From the NCBI GenBank assembly GCA_964533515.1, contig CAZHMB010000001.1, positions 8,640 through 72,639 of the forward strand: a stretch of 64,000 nt of DNA, given 5' to 3'. The notes below the pieces were generated by a model. That model saw nothing but the letters and a program-made list of their open reading frames with translations, was not told the origin of the DNA and did no database searches. Made by a program: the position numbers and the translations under genes. Position 1 is the stretch's first letter. Every line of letters starts with the position of its first letter. The DNA is from Candidatus Woesearchaeota archaeon (lineage in GTDB: Archaea > Nanobdellota > Nanobdellia > Pacearchaeales > GW2011-AR1). Below are positions 34,644 to 40,451 of this stretch, piece after piece.

Positions 34644-36341
34644 ATGGCAAACATAAAATTTTCAAAAAGTCAATTTGAAAGAGAAGTCGGAAAACTAAAC
34701 AAAGAGATGGAAGAAAAGATAGCTTTGTTTGGAACCCCTCTTGAATTTGTTACAGATGAAGAAATAGAATTAGAAATTTTCCCTAACCGCCCAGATTTAC
34801 TCTCATATCAAGGATTTAAAAGATCTTTTTTAAATTTTATAGGAAAATCAAAGGGGATAAAGAATTACAAAATCAATAAGCCTGAAAAAGATTACGAAGT
34901 GAAAGTTGATTCTTCGTTGAAAGATATTCGGCCTTTCACTGCTTGCGCAATTGTGAAGAATCTTAAACTTGATGATGAAAAGATAAAGGAAATGGTTGAT
35001 CTCCAAGAAAAACTCCATGGGACCCTTGGAAGAAATAGAAAGAAAGTTGCGATTGGGATTTATCCCTTGGAGAAAATAGAAATGCCAATCGTCTTTAAAG
35101 CCCTTGAACCGGATAAGATTAAATTTCAACCACTAGAATCTGAAAGAGAAATGACTGGGTTGCAAATATTACAAAGGCATCCTGCTGGAAGGGAATATGC
35201 CCATCTGCTTGCGGGTAAATCCAAGTTTCCAGTTTTTGTAGATGCAAAACAAAACGTTCTGAGTATGCCCCCAATAATAAATTCCCATCTTACTGGAAAG
35301 ATTACAGAAAAGACAAAAGAAGTTTTTATCGAATGCTCTGGTTTTGACTTTAATACTCTGCAAAAATGCTTGAATATAATTATCACCACTCTCGCTGACC
35401 TTGGAGGAAAAATATATCAAATAAACCTGAAACTCCCTGGACAAAGTATCGGAAACCAAGTGACTCCTAATTTAGATACTGAAAAAAATAAAATCTCTCT
35501 TGAAGCTACCAATAAACTTCTCGGATTAGATCTGAATGAAAAGCAACTCAAACAACTTCTTGAAAAGGCGGGTCATGAGTATGATACTAAAACTAAGACC
35601 GTTGAAAGTCCGGCTTGGAGAACTGATCTTTTACACGAAGTAGATTTAATTGAAGATGTAGCAATTTCTTATGGCTATCAGAATTTTGTTCCGGAGATAC
35701 CAGAAATTTCTGCAATAGGAACAGAAGATCAAAAAGAGACTGTTAAGAGAAAAATTTCTGATATCCTCGCTGGTTTAGGAATGCTTGAAACTTTAAATTA
35801 TTTTTTAACCACCCGGTCGGATCAACTTGAAAAGAATTTCTCTATATCAGAACAAGAAGTAAAAAAAGATTCTTTAATAGAAATTCAAAGTTCAAAAACC
35901 GACTATAGTTTTTTACGGAATGATTTAACACATTATGCTTTAAAAAATTTATCTGAAAATAGTGATTCGGAATATCCTCAGAAGATATTCGAAACGGGCA
36001 GAGTTTTTGAAATAGACAATCAAACTAAAAAAATTGATGAAAGTGAGAGTCTTGCTGTGGCAATGGCCCCGGGAAATTATACCGATATCAAACAAACGCT
36101 GGAATACTTATTCAAAATGTTGGGATTAGAAGAAACTTTGAAGATTGAAGATGTTCAAGATTCTAGTCCGGTCCCAGGGTATTTTGTTAAGGAGAGGGTT
36201 GCGGGGATTCTTTTTAAGAAAAAGCTAATTGGTTATATCGGAGAAATTCACCCCAAGATATTGAGAAAGTGGAAAATAAAAATGCCCGTTGCACTTTTTG
36301 AACTTTCTCTCGAGGATATTTTTGAAAACCTTGGAACATAA
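34644..36341 (+). CDS. pheT: phenylalanyl-tRNA synthetase beta subunit (archaeal type)
   Basis: 565 aa. Translationally coupled to pheS. B3/B4 and B5-like domain layout of archaeal PheT. Confidence 0.8.
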   Translation: MANIKFSKSQFEREVGKLNKEMEEKIALFGTPLEFVTDEEIELEIFPNRPDLLSYQGFKRSFLNFIGKSKGIKNYKINKPEKDYEVKVDSSLKDIRPFTACAIVKNLKLDDEKIKEMVDLQEKLHGTLGRNRKKVAIGIYPLEKIEMPIVFKALEPDKIKFQPLESEREMTGLQILQRHPAGREYAHLLAGKSKFPVFVDAKQNVLSMPPIINSHLTGKITEKTKEVFIECSGFDFNTLQKCLNIIITTLADLGGKIYQINLKLPGQSIGNQVTPNLDTEKNKISLEATNKLLGLDLNEKQLKQLLEKAGHEYDTKTKTVESPAWRTDLLHEVDLIEDVAISYGYQNFVPEIPEISAIGTEDQKETVKRKISDILAGLGMLETLNYFLTTRSDQLEKNFSISEQEVKKDSLIEIQSSKTDYSFLRNDLTHYALKNLSENSDSEYPQKIFETGRVFEIDNQTKKIDESESLAVAMAPGNYTDIKQTLEYLFKMLGLEETLKIEDVQDSSPVPGYFVKERVAGILFKKKLIGYIGEIHPKILRKWKIKMPVALFELSLEDIFENLGT

Positions 36342-36371
36342 TTTTATATATCAATTTTATTTAGTTCCATC

Positions 36372-36578
36372 ATGAAAAACAACAGCCGTTCTAATGACTG
36401 TGGATGTGATCCCAGCAATATTGCGCCAAACAAGATGTGTCAATTGACAAAACAAGCGCATAAATTTGATGTCGAGAAGGTCAAAAAGTTAACTTCAAAT
36501 CCGAAGTTTATTTGCAAGTGTTGCGGAAGGACCGCAAATGACAAAGAAAATTTGTGCAGCCCTGTTTATTTAAATTGA
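36372..36578 (+). CDS. small Cys-rich protein (8 Cys, CGCD...CKCCG)
   Basis: 68-aa ORF with CGC and CKCC clusters. Possible metal-binding mini-protein. Confidence 0.3.
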   Translation: MKNNSRSNDCGCDPSNIAPNKMCQLTKQAHKFDVEKVKKLTSNPKFICKCCGRTANDKENLCSPVYLN

Positions 36579-36579
36579 A

Positions 36580-36691
36580 AGCCTGCGCTGAGGATTGAAC
36601 TCAGGATAACCTAAAGGTCACGAGAACCCCTTCTGACGAAGAGGGCCTCTTCGTTACCAACGAAACGCTCTACCAACTGAGCTACACGGCC
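36580..36691 (-). tRNA. aberrant tRNA-Thr (GGU)-like gene with ~39-nt insertion in the variable-loop region and mismatched acceptor stem
   Basis: 5' part is canonical: GGCCGUG-UA-GCUC-AGUUGGUA-GAGC-G-UUUCG-UUGGUAA-CGAAG, anticodon GGU. 3' end has a canonical T arm CUGAG-UUCAAUC-CUCAG followed by CGCAGGC-U. Between them is an insertion that contains a 7-bp hairpin, CCUCUUC-GUCA-GAAGGGG. An intron at 46/47 would leave variable loop AGGUC. Only 5 of 7 acceptor pairs form. TATA ttttttatag lies 22-31 nt upstream. Confidence 0.45.
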
Positions 36692-36730
36692 TAAGAGATA
36701 AAGAAAATTAACACTATAAAAAACTTACAC

Positions 36731-37060
36731 TTATTTGTTGGCAAGTTTCATTATGAATAAAACCAATAAAACAATCAAGAAAGCCAGATCTATAACCCCG
36801 AAGATTATTACCAAAAGCATAAATATGTTTGACAAGAGAACATTGGCGATTGCCATCGATATTAAATAAGAGACTAAAGAAAGAACCAAAAATAGAATAA
36901 AATTTTTGAGAGCTATTTTTAGTTTTCTTGGGGTTGATCTCGCATAAACTTTTTTAGATTTTTTCGGAGACTTCTTTACTTTTTTTGAAGCCAGTTTGCT
37001 CTTTGATTTTTTCACAACCTTCTTGGAAACTTTCTTTTTTGTCACCTTCTTTTTTGCCAT
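36731..37060 (-). CDS. membrane protein with K-rich N-terminal tail (KKKVTKKKVSKK...)
   Basis: 109 aa. ~45-aa poly-Lys/Ser basic N-terminus followed by 2 TM helices. Confidence 0.4.
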   Translation of the reverse strand: MAKKKVTKKKVSKKVVKKSKSKLASKKVKKSPKKSKKVYARSTPRKLKIALKNFILFLVLSLVSYLISMAIANVLLSNIFMLLVIIFGVIDLAFLIVLLVLFIMKLANK

Positions 37061-37101
37061 CTTATGTAATTAGATAGTAGCTCTCTTTTTTAAATGTTTC
37101 T

Positions 37102-37434
37102 TTATTCGTTATCGGAAGTGAAATTTTCTCCGTCATCCTTCCAATCTAATTTAACTGCGTGGGAGGTTATTGATTTGAAATTTCCGAAAAGCGCCCCGAC
37201 CCAAACGAAGTATAATCTTCCTGCCTCTGTTAAACCTTCTACAGACTTTAAATCAACCTCATGAGTGTTAATTATCGCAGAAAAACTAAAATAAGTAAAT
37301 AATATTAGGCAGATTAAGAAGATAGCGAAAATTTTATGTTTTAATCTCTTTAACTCGATGATTGTCCAGATCGCTACCACTAATACCCCCACAACTAAAA
37401 GAGTCACCCCGATTACCATGTTTGGATAATACAA
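37102..37434 (-). CDS. small membrane protein, hypothetical
   Basis: 110 aa with 3 TM helices. Confidence 0.35.
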   Translation of the reverse strand: MYYPNMVIGVTLLVVGVLVVAIWTIIELKRLKHKIFAIFLICLILFTYFSFSAIINTHEVDLKSVEGLTEAGRLYFVWVGALFGNFKSITSHAVKLDWKDDGENFTSDNE

Positions 37435-37602
37435 AGAAGATTTATAAATTTATTGCAAGGCATAGCCCACCAGTTCTCGCACTTGACTAAGCAGTTATCA
37501 CAATACTAATTTGTCTCTTAGCCAAATGCTCGTCGAACCTTCAGGTTCTCATTCCTAGAATATTTGGTGATACTATTTCGCCTTCGCTCAATAGCATTCG
37601 AA

Positions 37603-37737
37603 TAGCCCCACCAGGATTCGAACCTGGGTCAACAGGTATTCCCAAGCTCGCTCGCGTTATCAACGCACGCAAATTTAATCGTGCTCGCGAACTTGCTCAC
37701 CAGAACCTGTCATACTTGACCGCTGTACTATGGGGCT
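37603..37737 (-). tRNA. tRNA-Gln (CUG) with 62-nt intron after position 37
   Basis: Exon 1 (37737..37700): AGCCCCA-UA-GUAC-AGCGGUCAA-GUAU-G-ACAGG-UUCUGG. Exon 2 (37637..37603): A-CCUGU-UGAC-CCAGG-UUCGAAU-CCUGG-UGGGGCU-A. Perfect acceptor and anticodon stems. TATA attttttaaa lies 24-33 nt upstream. Confidence 0.7.
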
Positions 37738-37779
37738 CTAAAAATTATAAAAAGCGCTTGTTTAAAAAATCTTCTAAAA

Positions 37780-39273
37780 CTAAAAACTGCTAAATCCTGT
37801 GGCTTCCTGAAATCTATAAAGGAGATACTTTCCTCTTGAAGAATCTTCGTATTTTGAAAAATCCGCGGTGAAATCCCCTAACTTATTTTCCCAGAGCATT
37901 TCAAAATAATCTTCTATCTCTTTTGATAAAATTGTCTCTTCAGGAGAAGATACTTTTACGTTCATCTCAAGATTAAAGTTTCCGATGTTTCTTTTTGTTA
38001 AATTTGCGCTGCCCAAATATACAATTATTGAACCATCTGATTTTCTTAAAATGATCATCTTGCTGTGAAACTGTTCTCCCTGAGTGTCATACCACCGGAT
38101 CTTTATTTTTCCTTTCGATTTTTTTACCAGCTCAAAAGCCGCCGGCCGATTTGGCACTCCGTTTTTCTCTCTCGCAAAAGCATCTTTGTTGGGATCCAAG
38201 ATTAATCTAACTTCAACACCCCTCTCTGACGCACCCAATATTGAACGAATTATTTTTCTGTCTGAGAAGTAAAACATTGCGATCTCTAATTCTTCTCCAG
38301 CTTCAAGAGAATCTATATCCTTAACCAAATTTTCTCTTATTTTTCCTTCAGTGAATAATTGAACTTGTATGTTTCCGGAATTATTTTCTTCTGAAAATTT
38401 AGAAACGTCAAAATCTATTTTACTTCCAGAAAATTCGGCTACAGCTTTTTCAGTATCTAGGACATCTTTCCAAATTCCTTTTTTTATTAAAATTCCTATA
38501 TTGCTATGTTTACTGCTTGCTTCATGAGGGTTGGCAGAAGTCACTATCGTATAAACCTCTGATCCCTTTTCAGCGTCGGCTATTATCACTTTTCTGTGAT
38601 TCGCTTTTGTATTCATCAATTTAAGGACAGATCTTAATGTAACTTTTCTTTCTGAATTTCCTAAAAGATGATTTATCCAACCTTTTCCTGAAGTTCCAAA
38701 CCATTGAAAATATGCCCGATATAATCCTGCGTAAACAAAGTTTAAATCCCGCATTTTGTTTAAATCTGTTATGACCACCTCAATGCCTGCATCTTTCATT
38801 TCTTTGAGTTCATCTGAAGTATAAGAACCATAAAAATTATTTATTGGGTCTGTTATAAAAAAGACTTTCAGTTCCGGGTTAGATTTTTTTTGCTTTATCA
38901 AAAGGTTTTTCATATCAGTTGTTAGATTTTTATAACGAACGTTCTCAGAATAATCTGTATTGAATAAAAACATGTCTATAACAATAAATTTTTCCGCTTT
39001 ACGAATCATCTCAAAGACGTTGTCAAATATTTCTTGTTCTATTACTGTTTGATTGTCTTTTAAATAATTGAGATCGTGGAGAAATTCGATTTCGCCCTCT
39101 GAAACATTGTAGATCTGTCCTTCTACATTTATCCCTTTTGGAAGAGGGTAGAATCTAGAATATATTGAAACTAGAATCCAGATTATCAGCAAACCTAAAA
39201 GTATATATCCAATCATCTTCCTTTTTGAAACTCTTTTTCCATTTTTTTTATCTGAACTCATTTTCAAATTCAA
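37780..39273 (-). CDS. phospholipase D-family protein (two HKD motifs, cardiolipin/phosphatidyl-transferase-like), N-terminal TM anchor
   Basis: 497 aa. HKD motifs HRKVIIADAEKGSEVYTIVTSANPHEASS and HSKMIILRKSDGSIIVYLGSANLTKRN. Confidence 0.7.
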   Translation of the reverse strand: MNLKMSSDKKNGKRVSKRKMIGYILLGLLIIWILVSIYSRFYPLPKGINVEGQIYNVSEGEIEFLHDLNYLKDNQTVIEQEIFDNVFEMIRKAEKFIVIDMFLFNTDYSENVRYKNLTTDMKNLLIKQKKSNPELKVFFITDPINNFYGSYTSDELKEMKDAGIEVVITDLNKMRDLNFVYAGLYRAYFQWFGTSGKGWINHLLGNSERKVTLRSVLKLMNTKANHRKVIIADAEKGSEVYTIVTSANPHEASSKHSNIGILIKKGIWKDVLDTEKAVAEFSGSKIDFDVSKFSEENNSGNIQVQLFTEGKIRENLVKDIDSLEAGEELEIAMFYFSDRKIIRSILGASERGVEVRLILDPNKDAFAREKNGVPNRPAAFELVKKSKGKIKIRWYDTQGEQFHSKMIILRKSDGSIIVYLGSANLTKRNIGNFNLEMNVKVSSPEETILSKEIEDYFEMLWENKLGDFTADFSKYEDSSRGKYLLYRFQEATGFSSF

Positions 39274-40303
39274 TTATATTTCTGATTGCCTCCTCTTTTT
39301 CGTAATCACTTAATAGAACATAGTTTGATATTTTAAAGATAACTAATTCCTTTTTATCGCTTGAGACCTTTTCATAAACCAGCTTGGAGCTTTTTACATC
39401 TACAGTATCGTCGTTTTTTGATTGTTGGATTAAAATTGGATTTGAAATCTTATTTAGGTTAGCTTCAACTAATTTTATGTCTTTGAAGGAATTCTTTAGT
39501 GATTGCCAAGGTAAGTTTTTGTATCCAATAAAACTTTTTAGTCCTTCTGGAGAATTTATTTGCGCGGGATCTCCTTTCTTTTTGAAAACGATTATATCTG
39601 CAAAAATATTTATTATTGTCTCTTTCTTCAGGACATTCCACCACTTGTATCTTAATCGGATAAACGGGGAGATTAAATAAATTCTTTGAATTTTATCTTC
39701 TCCAGAATGTTCTTCTGCAAGTTTTAAAGCCAGTGCACCTCCAAAACTAAAGCCCACCAGATTAATCTTTGAACATTCCTGATCAAGAGACTTGTAATCT
39801 CCTTCTGCTTGGGCGTACCAATCTGAAAAACTTAAACCTAATAGTTTGCTTGGGATTTCTCCATGCCCTTTTAACCTTGGAACAGAAACATAATCTCCAA
39901 ATTCTGAATTAATCTCCTTGCTTAGTCCTTTGAAATCATTTGGTGTAGAGCCATATCCATGAATCATTAACCAACAGGTTTCTTTGTCTCCAGGAAGATA
40001 AAATTCCTCCGCACCGGCAATTGTCCCAGCCATCGAATAGTCCCAATATTCTAAATCCCTTTCATCAATTTTTTCAGATTGCAAAAATCCTGTTTTGAGA
40101 TACAATGAAAAAAAGATTATGCCGATTAAGAAAACTACTGCTACAAGAAAAAAGGTAATCTTCTTTTTTCTAGAACTCCGTTCCTTTTTCCCTCTTTTTT
40201 TCATAGAATCATCAAAGAAGAAGAGTTTAAAATTGTTTTGAAAAGAAAGGTTTTTAAGTTGTGCGGGTTTGATTTTGGCATGCCCTCGTAGTACAGAGGC
40301 CAA
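39248..40303 (-). CDS. membrane-anchored alpha/beta hydrolase
   Basis: 351 aa. N-terminal TM. Nucleophile elbow GFSFGGALA (GxSxG) and Asp/His later in the sequence. Confidence 0.6.
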   Translation of the reverse strand: MASVLRGHAKIKPAQLKNLSFQNNFKLFFFDDSMKKRGKKERSSRKKKITFFLVAVVFLIGIIFFSLYLKTGFLQSEKIDERDLEYWDYSMAGTIAGAEEFYLPGDKETCWLMIHGYGSTPNDFKGLSKEINSEFGDYVSVPRLKGHGEIPSKLLGLSFSDWYAQAEGDYKSLDQECSKINLVGFSFGGALALKLAEEHSGEDKIQRIYLISPFIRLRYKWWNVLKKETIINIFADIIVFKKKGDPAQINSPEGLKSFIGYKNLPWQSLKNSFKDIKLVEANLNKISNPILIQQSKNDDTVDVKSSKLVYEKVSSDKKELVIFKISNYVLLSDYEKEEAIRNIIEFENEFR

Positions 40304-40451
40304 GTATGCCGCCCTCTCAAATTGCCGGAGTTTTAATCGATGAGATAAAAATTCCTATCCTCTCAAGGAAAGGCATTTTGTTTTAGCTCCAAAGAATTTT
40401 TCGGGAGCACGGAGAACGGCGGTGACCCGAGTTCGAATCTCGGCGAGGGCG
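40282..40451 (+). tRNA. tRNA-Glu (CUC) with 97-nt intron after position 37
   Basis: Exon 1 (40282..40319): GCCCUCG-UA-GUAC-AGAGGCCAA-GUAU-G-CCGCC-CUCUCA. Exon 2 (40417..40451): C-GGCGG-UGAC-CCGAG-UUCGAAU-CUCGG-CGAGGGC-G. D arm almost identical to tRNA-Gln. TATA tttttaag lies about 27 nt upstream. Confidence 0.7.

Follow-up and report, generated by a model that had tools for sequence, protein, structure and literature searches.

The window analysed here, the whole 64,000-nt stretch of archaeal DNA, carries an aberrant tRNA-Thr(GGU) gene on its minus strand. This feature is very probably a resident tRNA-Thr(GGU) gene that has undergone two recent indel-type lesions, and not a gene with a BHB intron, a split gene or an artefact. 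Of the fates considered for it, the analysis leans slightly towards a tolerated insertion over a recent pseudogene. In this tentatively preferred reading, the insertion may be kept as an oversized variable region of a tRNA that is still in use. The observations in hand are the identity of the gene, its orthology, its reproducibility, the missing BHB, an inverted repeat that spans the insertion junction and the compatibility of the insert with a cloverleaf. The features of the gene are as follows.

36580-36691, minus strand: aberrant tRNA-Thr(GGU) gene, 112 nt, from the Rfam RF00005 full model and positional orthology to L122, L124 and L126
36579, minus strand: gene end, giving 113 nt, if the shifted acceptor register described below applies (sequence)
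36646-36691, minus strand: 5' body, tRNA positions 1-46, with GGCCGUG (36685-36691), the D arm, the anticodon arm and A44 G45 G46 (sequence and Rfam alignment)
36656-36658, minus strand: anticodon GGU (sequence and Rfam alignment)
36607-36645, minus strand: 39-nt insert between G46 and U47, absent from three orthologues
36580-36606, minus strand: 3' body with U47 C48, T arm, acceptor 3' strand and discriminator U (sequence; seen in L128, L135 and L134)
36588-36604, minus strand: T arm CUGAG-UUCAAUC-CUCAG (sequence)
36581-36587, minus strand: acceptor 3' strand CGCAGGC (sequence)
36584, minus strand: A69 (RNA position 108), mispaired with C4 or bulged (marked by Rfam; bulged in the MFE structure)
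36715-36720, minus strand: TATA-like box TTTATA at -29..-24, matching the boxes of other tRNA genes in position and type
36567-36579, minus strand: 3' trailer UUUCAAUUUAAAU, rich in U and plausibly an oligo-T terminator (sequence)

Read from 36691 to 36580, the gene begins with GGCCGUG, U8 and A9, followed by the D arm GCUC-AGUUGGUA-GAGC, G26, the anticodon arm UUUCG-UUGGUAA-CGAAG and A44 G45 G46. The 39-nt insert CCCUCUUCGUCAGAAGGGGUUCUCGUGACCUUUAGGUUA comes next, and the gene closes with U47 C48, the T arm, CGCAGGC and U. Its halves are in order and share one promoter. Rfam RF00005 matches the gene over model positions 1-71 at 41.2 bits (E = 2.6e-5), above the gathering score of 29, and the alignment places an insert of ~40 nt in the variable region and treats 2-71 and 4-69 as non-standard pairs. 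Pairing is perfect in the D, anticodon and T stems, and the conserved U8, A14, G18 G19, U33, G53 U54 U55 C56 A58 and C61 are all kept in the sequence and the Rfam alignment. The promoter and core nucleotides, whose loss marks a pseudogene, are likewise retained, and the TTTATA box resembles those that precede the orthologues and the window's five other tRNA genes. The oligo-T reading of the U-rich trailer follows the usual pattern of termination in archaea. The original prediction had described an aberrant tRNA-Thr(GGU)-like gene with a canonical 5' half and T arm, a good upstream TATA and a variable-region insertion of ~39 nt, and on each of these points the gene is as described. An ARAGORN run did not call it at 36580-36691, and other Rfam families gave only noise over the insert (E above 4).

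The flanking genes encode archaeal PheRS alpha and beta. The nearest relatives of the PheRS-beta are 66-67% identical and are labelled Nanoarchaeota, Nanobdellota or Woesearchaeota. A normal tRNA-Thr(GGU) gene lies convergent to pheT in L122, L124 (=L125) and L126 (=L127), and L122, L124 and L126 share the gene order of the window, with tRNA-Thr(GGU), small membrane-protein genes and tRNA-Gln. These three orthologues are ordinary, being 73-76 nt long with the variable loop AGGUC, perfect acceptor stems and scores of 65-69 bits. Alignment to them puts the insert at position 46/47, precisely between AGG and UC, and the T arm of the window gene is that of the L122 orthologue. Because the orthologues in L122, L124 and L126 are normal, the insert and the acceptor defect are lineage-specific. 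A pattern scan of contigs found no close relatives with the insert, returning mostly tandem bacterial tRNAs and archaeal canonical introns, and a metagenome scan for insert-bearing relatives gave one unrelated normal tRNA.

The window contains six tRNA genes, for Met, Arg, Cys, Gln (62-nt intron), Glu (97-nt intron) and Thr(GGU), and there is no second tRNA-Thr among these six within the 64 kb. In the long ORFs of the window ACC and ACU make up 50% of Thr codons (308/622), compared with 43-49% in relatives; an ACY decoder is therefore still required. The tRNA-Gln(CUG) gene (37603-37737, minus strand) has a 62-nt canonical intron with a strict hBHBh' motif. This intron has a homologue in L126 and none in the L122 and L124 orthologues, so its presence varies within the group. 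The tRNA-Glu(CUC) gene (40282-40451, plus strand) has a 97-nt canonical BHB intron and scores 44 bits; it was missed by ARAGORN and by a whole-window Rfam search with default filters.

Between pheT and tRNA-Thr(GGU) lies ORF68 (36372-36578, plus strand), which encodes a Cys-rich protein of 68 aa. It is a conserved small protein with 61 homologues at up to 85% identity and no Pfam family, found mostly on Woesearchaeota-type contigs. In L129 it is again convergent with tRNA-Thr(GGU), there with a 49-nt canonical intron, and its neighbourhoods in L130, L131 and L133 are without this tRNA. The idea that ORF68 and the tRNA 3' end form a foreign cassette was rejected, as ORF68 is widespread and adjoins tRNA-Thr(GGU) in L129 as well. 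Positions 1040-1505 of L131 hold a tRNA-Val(UAC) gene together with additional copies, on its sides, of its 5' end (ACGACTCCTTAGGCTA) and its 3' end (GATTCTTGGAGGAGTCAT); the locus looks rearranged, with tRNA fragments duplicated.

The sequence of the gene is reproduced in other assemblies. The JGI contig L134 (Ga0208904_1013718) is 100% identical over window positions 35231-38228 and the Logan contig L135 (SRR5581654_154245) over 36577-37627, each covering the whole gene, while the Logan contig L128, also 100% identical, supports the 3' strand up to 36605. This identity in one JGI and two Logan contigs shows that the gene is not an assembler artefact. L128 and L135, both from SRR5581654, end inside the 3' part of the tRNA with a mutual overlap of 29 nt (36577-36605), and L128 terminates exactly at the boundary between insert and T arm. 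These ends could be due to low coverage or to a graph branch from an alternative allele. An assembly or sequencing error would be in keeping with the metagenome-derived source and with two Logan contigs stopping within the tRNA 3' part, but the entire gene is identical in the window, L134 and L135 and the flanks on either side are syntenic with relatives, making such an error extremely improbable.

The original prediction had considered the insert a non-canonical intron at 46/47. Non-canonical archaeal tRNA introns, including those at 45/46, are well known and are BHB-dependent (PMC4090602). The insert was searched for a BHB with a scanner requiring a 4-bp central helix and a 3-nt bulge 3' of each strand, with cleavage after the second bulge base. 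A BHB was defined by two 3-nt bulges, a 4-bp helix between them, at least one flanking helix and an excision that gives a canonical tRNA; the relaxed rule accepted at least 3/4 pairs in H and at least 3 in h or h'. For the tRNA-Gln of the window the scanner returned the canonical 37/38 junction. The control set comprised 17 genes, namely 16 tRNA-Thr genes from the contig scan and L129 together with the tRNA-Glu of the window. The correct junction was found for 13/17 under the strict rule and for 16/17 with one central-helix mismatch allowed. Among the recovered controls is the variable-loop intron of L076 at 44/45. This L076 gene (4285-4373, plus strand) is a tRNA-Thr with the unusual anticodon AGU, and its 37-nt intron has a clean HBh' motif.

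Neither the strict nor the relaxed scan of tRNA-Thr(GGU) found a junction pair that gives a variable loop of 4-5 nt. The BHB-like motifs that are present (cuts at 46/72 or 47/72, 45/81, 45/82 and 47/82) would result in variable regions of 8-10 nt, or of ~20 nt with a hairpin arm. The insert thus falls outside the BHB-intron family, and the proposed intron at 46/47 has to be given up since no BHB restores a normal tRNA while the same scan finds 16/17 controls. Nor did a standard tool fold the gene into a normal single-intron tRNA with a paired acceptor, an outcome that the original prediction had allowed for. The canonical 37/38 site does show a strong fold resembling a BHB (H 32-35/56-59, h' 39-45/49-55), which was dismissed as a by-product of a 9-nt palindrome; a cut there would delete the 3' strand of the anticodon stem, and no replacement strand lies downstream.

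A looser form of splicing was also weighed, in which the splicing endonuclease would cut one or more non-canonical introns at a relaxed motif and leave a long or enlarged variable region. The first candidate is HBh'-like, with cuts at 46/47 and 71/72, and would keep UGACCUUUAGGUUA, a hairpin of 14 nt, as a variable arm like that of class II. The second is hBH-like, with cuts at 45/46 and 80/81, and would leave a variable loop of 9 nt. One motif combines 3/4 pairs in H with a 7-bp h' and places the 5' cut exactly between G46 and C47, and another has a 6-bp outer helix (GGUAAC/GUUAUC) with 3/4 pairs in H. Variable-loop introns do exist, as at 44/45 in L076 and at position 45/46 elsewhere (PMC4090602), and in DPANN an association has been described between endonucleases that have the L3 loop and disruption of tRNA genes (PMC5829648). 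However, 3/4 motifs often arise by chance in 112 nt, and neither candidate restores a loop of 4-5 nt under criteria that place 16/17 control introns at the correct junction. The BHB-like conformers are also disfavoured energetically, at -22 to -28 kcal/mol compared with -32.8 kcal/mol for the cloverleaf with two insert hairpins and an MFE of -41.1 kcal/mol. Finally, no splice cures the acceptor defect. Relaxed splicing is accordingly improbable.

The mismatched appearance of the two halves had also suggested a two-half arrangement like that of split tRNAs. Nanoarchaeota are the classic home of split tRNAs, which counts in favour of a split, trans-spliced or hybrid gene whose halves come from different tRNAs, or whose 3' half was replaced via a mobile element. 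CGCAGGC would pair perfectly with a typical GCCUGYG, as in L031 (GCCUGCA/UGCAGGC), and Caldiarchaeum offers a documented case of a tRNA-Thr(GGU) locus that a mobile element has disrupted (PMC3293823). Here, though, a single promoter precedes two contiguous and correctly ordered halves, the T arm is the one found in the L122 orthologue, and the neighbouring ORF68 is an ordinary conserved small protein. The marks of split tRNAs, which are separate halves, complementary trailer and leader sequences and partners, are lacking within the 64-kb window. The matching halves that the original prediction proposed to look for were not there, as GCCUGCG and CACGGCC sites elsewhere in the window have no tRNA-like context, and the 3' part of the tRNA is not repeated in it. 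With one promoter, no partner halves in the window and a contiguous gene in relatives, the split arrangement does not hold up. There is no integrase among the genes neighbouring tRNA-Thr(GGU), and an IMG/VR search gave no match for the tRNA 3' half or the hairpin-B region. An 18-mer of hairpin A does match IMG/VR, in a single homologous region of viral coding sequence, and this was set aside as chance. That a virus or mobile element had integrated was rejected given that no integrase is nearby and no IMG/VR match is meaningful. Overall, an origin from two different tRNAs or by mobile-element replacement is very hard to credit.

The second lesion lies in the acceptor stem. Direct reading agrees with the 5/7 pairs given in the original prediction. 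In the fixed register GGCCGUG pairs with CGCAGGC at five of seven positions, with G2xG71 and C4xA69 failing. In a shifted register, which is the one chosen by RNAfold, all seven pairs form (G1.U, G2-C, C3-G, C4-G, G5-C, U6.G and G7-C) with A69 bulged, and the role of discriminator passes to the following U (36579). The 7-pair bulged register has a chance probability of about 0.004, compared with 0.09 for the fixed 5/7 register. The prediction had further pointed to an internal CGUGACC (6/7) as a partner for the acceptor. An equal or better partner occurs in 78% of shuffled inserts, and this sequence was rejected as the true acceptor 3' strand and put down to a chance match.

Comparison with other tRNA-Thr genes places the defect on the 5' strand. 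All 21 comparison archaeal tRNA-Thr genes start with G-C-Y and end with GGC-U, while the window gene starts with G-G-C-C; its 3' strand CGCAGGC-U is typical of this set and its 5' strand GGCCGUG is atypical. If the ancestral strand was GCCUGUG, loss of its U4 together with recruitment of the G just upstream gives exactly GGCCGUG. From these sequences, a single 1-nt deletion (U4) appears to be the most economical account of the acceptor defect, and would leave A69 partnerless. A G-G-C-C start would disturb acceptor pairs that probably matter for recognition by ThrRS.

The insert itself has the following internal structure.

36627-36645, minus strand: insert hairpin A, CC(C)UCUUC-GUCA-GAAGGGG (RNAfold)
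36606-36621, minus strand: insert hairpin B, (G)UGACC-UUUA-GGUUA(U) (RNAfold)
36636-36654, no strand assigned: inverted repeat of two perfect 9-nt arms set 1 nt apart, ACGAAGAGG then CCUCUUCGU (repeat finder, 100% complementary)

On its own the insert folds into these two hairpins at -12.9 kcal/mol (z = -1.8, RNAfold). The first arm of the inverted repeat, ACGAAGAGG, corresponds to exon positions 38-46 and the second, CCUCUUCGU, to the first bases of the insert; its BLAST self-match has E = 0.008 against 64 kb. The GAAGGGG that follows the inverted copy pairs back to form hairpin A, resulting in the layout X-X'-X''. Since the first 9 nt of the insert are an inverted copy of the adjacent exon, the insert most likely arose by a fold-back or template-switch error during replication. 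A fold-back covers hairpin A, and the remaining ~20 nt with hairpin B lie outside that account. Tandem duplication was rejected as the origin because the repeat search found no direct repeat, only the inverted one. Homology to other tRNA-Thr introns was also rejected; the best match was to L129 (UUUAGGUUCUC vs UUUAGGUUAUC), and its p = 0.0125, uncorrected over 13 comparisons, is not convincing.

In the context of the whole RNA, the MFE structure is a cloverleaf with two extra hairpins (z = -2.5). With the real insert, pair probabilities in the four cloverleaf arms are 0.72-0.96; among shuffled inserts only 2-3% do equally well. This insulated fold need not reflect selection because a fold-back hairpin is automatically self-contained.

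These data have to be set against two possible fates of the gene. The first is that recent inactivation by the insertion and the acceptor indel left a pseudogene, with ACC and ACU being read by another copy or decoder outside the window. This is a serious possibility. The gene carries two independent lesions, no BHB restores a normal tRNA, its score has fallen to 41 bits compared with 65-69 bits in the orthologues, and the insert bears the signature of a mutational accident. The lesions are lineage-specific and hence recent, and such an age would explain why the gene is otherwise perfect. Against this, the locus is syntenic and apparently the original one, the promoter is intact, the insertion sits at one of the few structurally tolerant sites and the acceptor still closes with 7 pairs. 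The use of ACY codons is also undiminished, with no second copy within 64 kb. DPANN genomes usually have single-copy tRNA sets, which speaks for function and against a pseudogene. Of the interpretations first offered for the gene, the sequence description thus stands and a decaying gene is still viable, while the 46/47 intron fails for want of a BHB and the split gene is unsupported, with no partners in the window and a contiguous gene in relatives.

The second fate, a tolerated insertion, draws on much of the same evidence. The gene occupies its syntenic original locus, where L126 also has the tRNA-Gln intron of the window, and outside the acceptor its stems and conserved bases are intact, as is its promoter box. 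The site 46/47, which is solvent-exposed in class I tRNA structures, adjoins the exit of the class II arm and presumably favours tolerance. The arm probabilities of 0.72-0.96, equalled by only 2-3% of shuffles, and the MFE z of -2.5 suggest that the insert does not disturb the fold, and the 7-bp acceptor with one bulge (p = 0.004) suggests that the stem still closes. The fold-back origin, with a 9-nt inverted repeat exactly at the junction, also fits, as do the 50% share of ACC and ACU among Thr codons and the lack of a second tRNA-Thr in 64 kb. However, two structural lesions in a 73-nt gene have the look of a dying gene, as does the drop from the 65-69 bits of the orthologues to 41 bits in Rfam. 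The G-G-C-C start, compared with G-C-Y in 21 tRNA-Thr genes, disturbs pairs 1-3/70-72, and the non-interfering fold can be explained by the fold-back origin alone. The best PheRS-beta relatives, at 66-67% identity, are too distant to show covariation or conservation of the insert, and the tRNA-Thr census spans only ~64 kb, beyond which a second intact copy may lie. A variable region of 43 nt with two hairpins is not known from any natural tRNA.

If the insertion is tolerated, the course of events may be reconstructed as follows. A resident gene at its ancestral locus would have been hit by two lineage-specific indel-type changes, a 39-nt insertion from a fold-back or template-switch error and the loss of U4 from GCCUGUG. 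Transcription would continue from the intact TATA promoter, and the RNA would be expected to fold as a normal cloverleaf. The insert would stay in the mature tRNA, wholly or in part, as a two-hairpin variable region projecting where long variable arms normally emerge. The acceptor is predicted to close with 7 bp and a bulged A69. Such a tRNA could still be aminoacylated and keep reading ACC and ACU, probably less efficiently.

Several known systems resemble this gene in part. As with archaeal BHB introns, a short insert of 39 nt lies in the variable region of a DPANN tRNA, and the neighbouring tRNA-Gln and tRNA-Glu genes carry BHB introns. Unlike these, the insert has no BHB that would rebuild a class I tRNA, its BHB-like folds are energetically disfavoured, and it begins with an inverted exon copy instead of the sequence of a central 4-bp helix. 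Split and tri-split tRNAs, as in Nanoarchaeum equitans and Caldivirga maquilingensis, share the phylum and the look of mismatched halves, but in the window the halves are contiguous behind one promoter, with no leader/trailer pair or partners. The tRNA pseudogenes are similar in their acceptor mispairing, insertion and lowered covariance-model score. They differ in that the window gene keeps its promoter, conserved bases, three arms and original syntenic locus.

The tRNA-Thr(GGU) locus of Caldiarchaeum subterraneum has been rapidly disrupted by BHB introns and by a fragment tied to a mobile element that bears a recombinase (Sugahara et al. 2012, PMC3293823). It involves the same isoacceptor and likewise a recent disruption of an ordinary gene at the lineage or population level. 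However, the window locus has no mobile element, fragment or BHB, and adds a shift in acceptor register.

Class II tRNAs (Leu, Ser) have one variable stem-loop of 10-24 nt and a 3-bp D stem, and nematode nev-tRNAs and bacterial allo-tRNAs are further oddities that bear a V arm. All of these resemble the window gene in that an extra stem-loop emerges from the variable region, with 46/47 adjoining the exit of the long arm. In contrast, the window gene has 43 nt between the anticodon stem and the T stem, well outside the 4-5 nt of a class I variable loop, and these 43 nt hold two hairpins instead of one in 10-24 nt. Its 4-bp D stem is of class I, its anticodon is GGU for Thr and its discriminator is U73, and the insert appears to be a recent, unconserved accident. 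By these features it is not a class II tRNA. A class-II-shaped tRNA of 87 nt was observed between pheS and pheT of the Nanoarchaeota relative L122 (5893-5979, plus strand). It has a 3-bp D stem, a 16-nt variable arm, discriminator G and the anticodon GAU (Ile), scores 59 bits in Rfam and is called 'tRNA-Ile gat' by ARAGORN. Either an Ile anticodon on a body of Ser type or a mini-intron in the variable region could account for it, and its presence is a hint that the group may have more than one unusual variable arm.

Some tRNAs frequently seem to be missing from DPANN genomes, and some DPANN tRNA sets are still incomplete; undetected disrupted genes are the suspected reason, and in DPANN such disruption correlates with endonucleases that carry an extra loop (PMC5829648). 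The locus described here is a concrete and reproducible disruption that BHB-based tools fail to resolve. It is also a warning for annotation, as ARAGORN misses tRNA-Thr(GGU) and the default filters of Rfam miss an intron-bearing neighbour. If the gene is dead, it would show a symbiont with a streamlined genome at the very start of losing a tRNA gene, and would imply a replacement decoder. A working tRNA-Thr(GGU) with one or two extra variable arms and a bulged acceptor, or one whose insert is removed without a BHB, is possible but rather doubtful. An architecture with extra arms and a bulged acceptor would fall outside class I and class II. If functional, the gene would mean that tRNAs, and with them ThrRS, RNase P and the ribosome, tolerate a wider range of structures than is known, and would mean that a new extra arm or proto-intron can come from a simple fold-back mutation.
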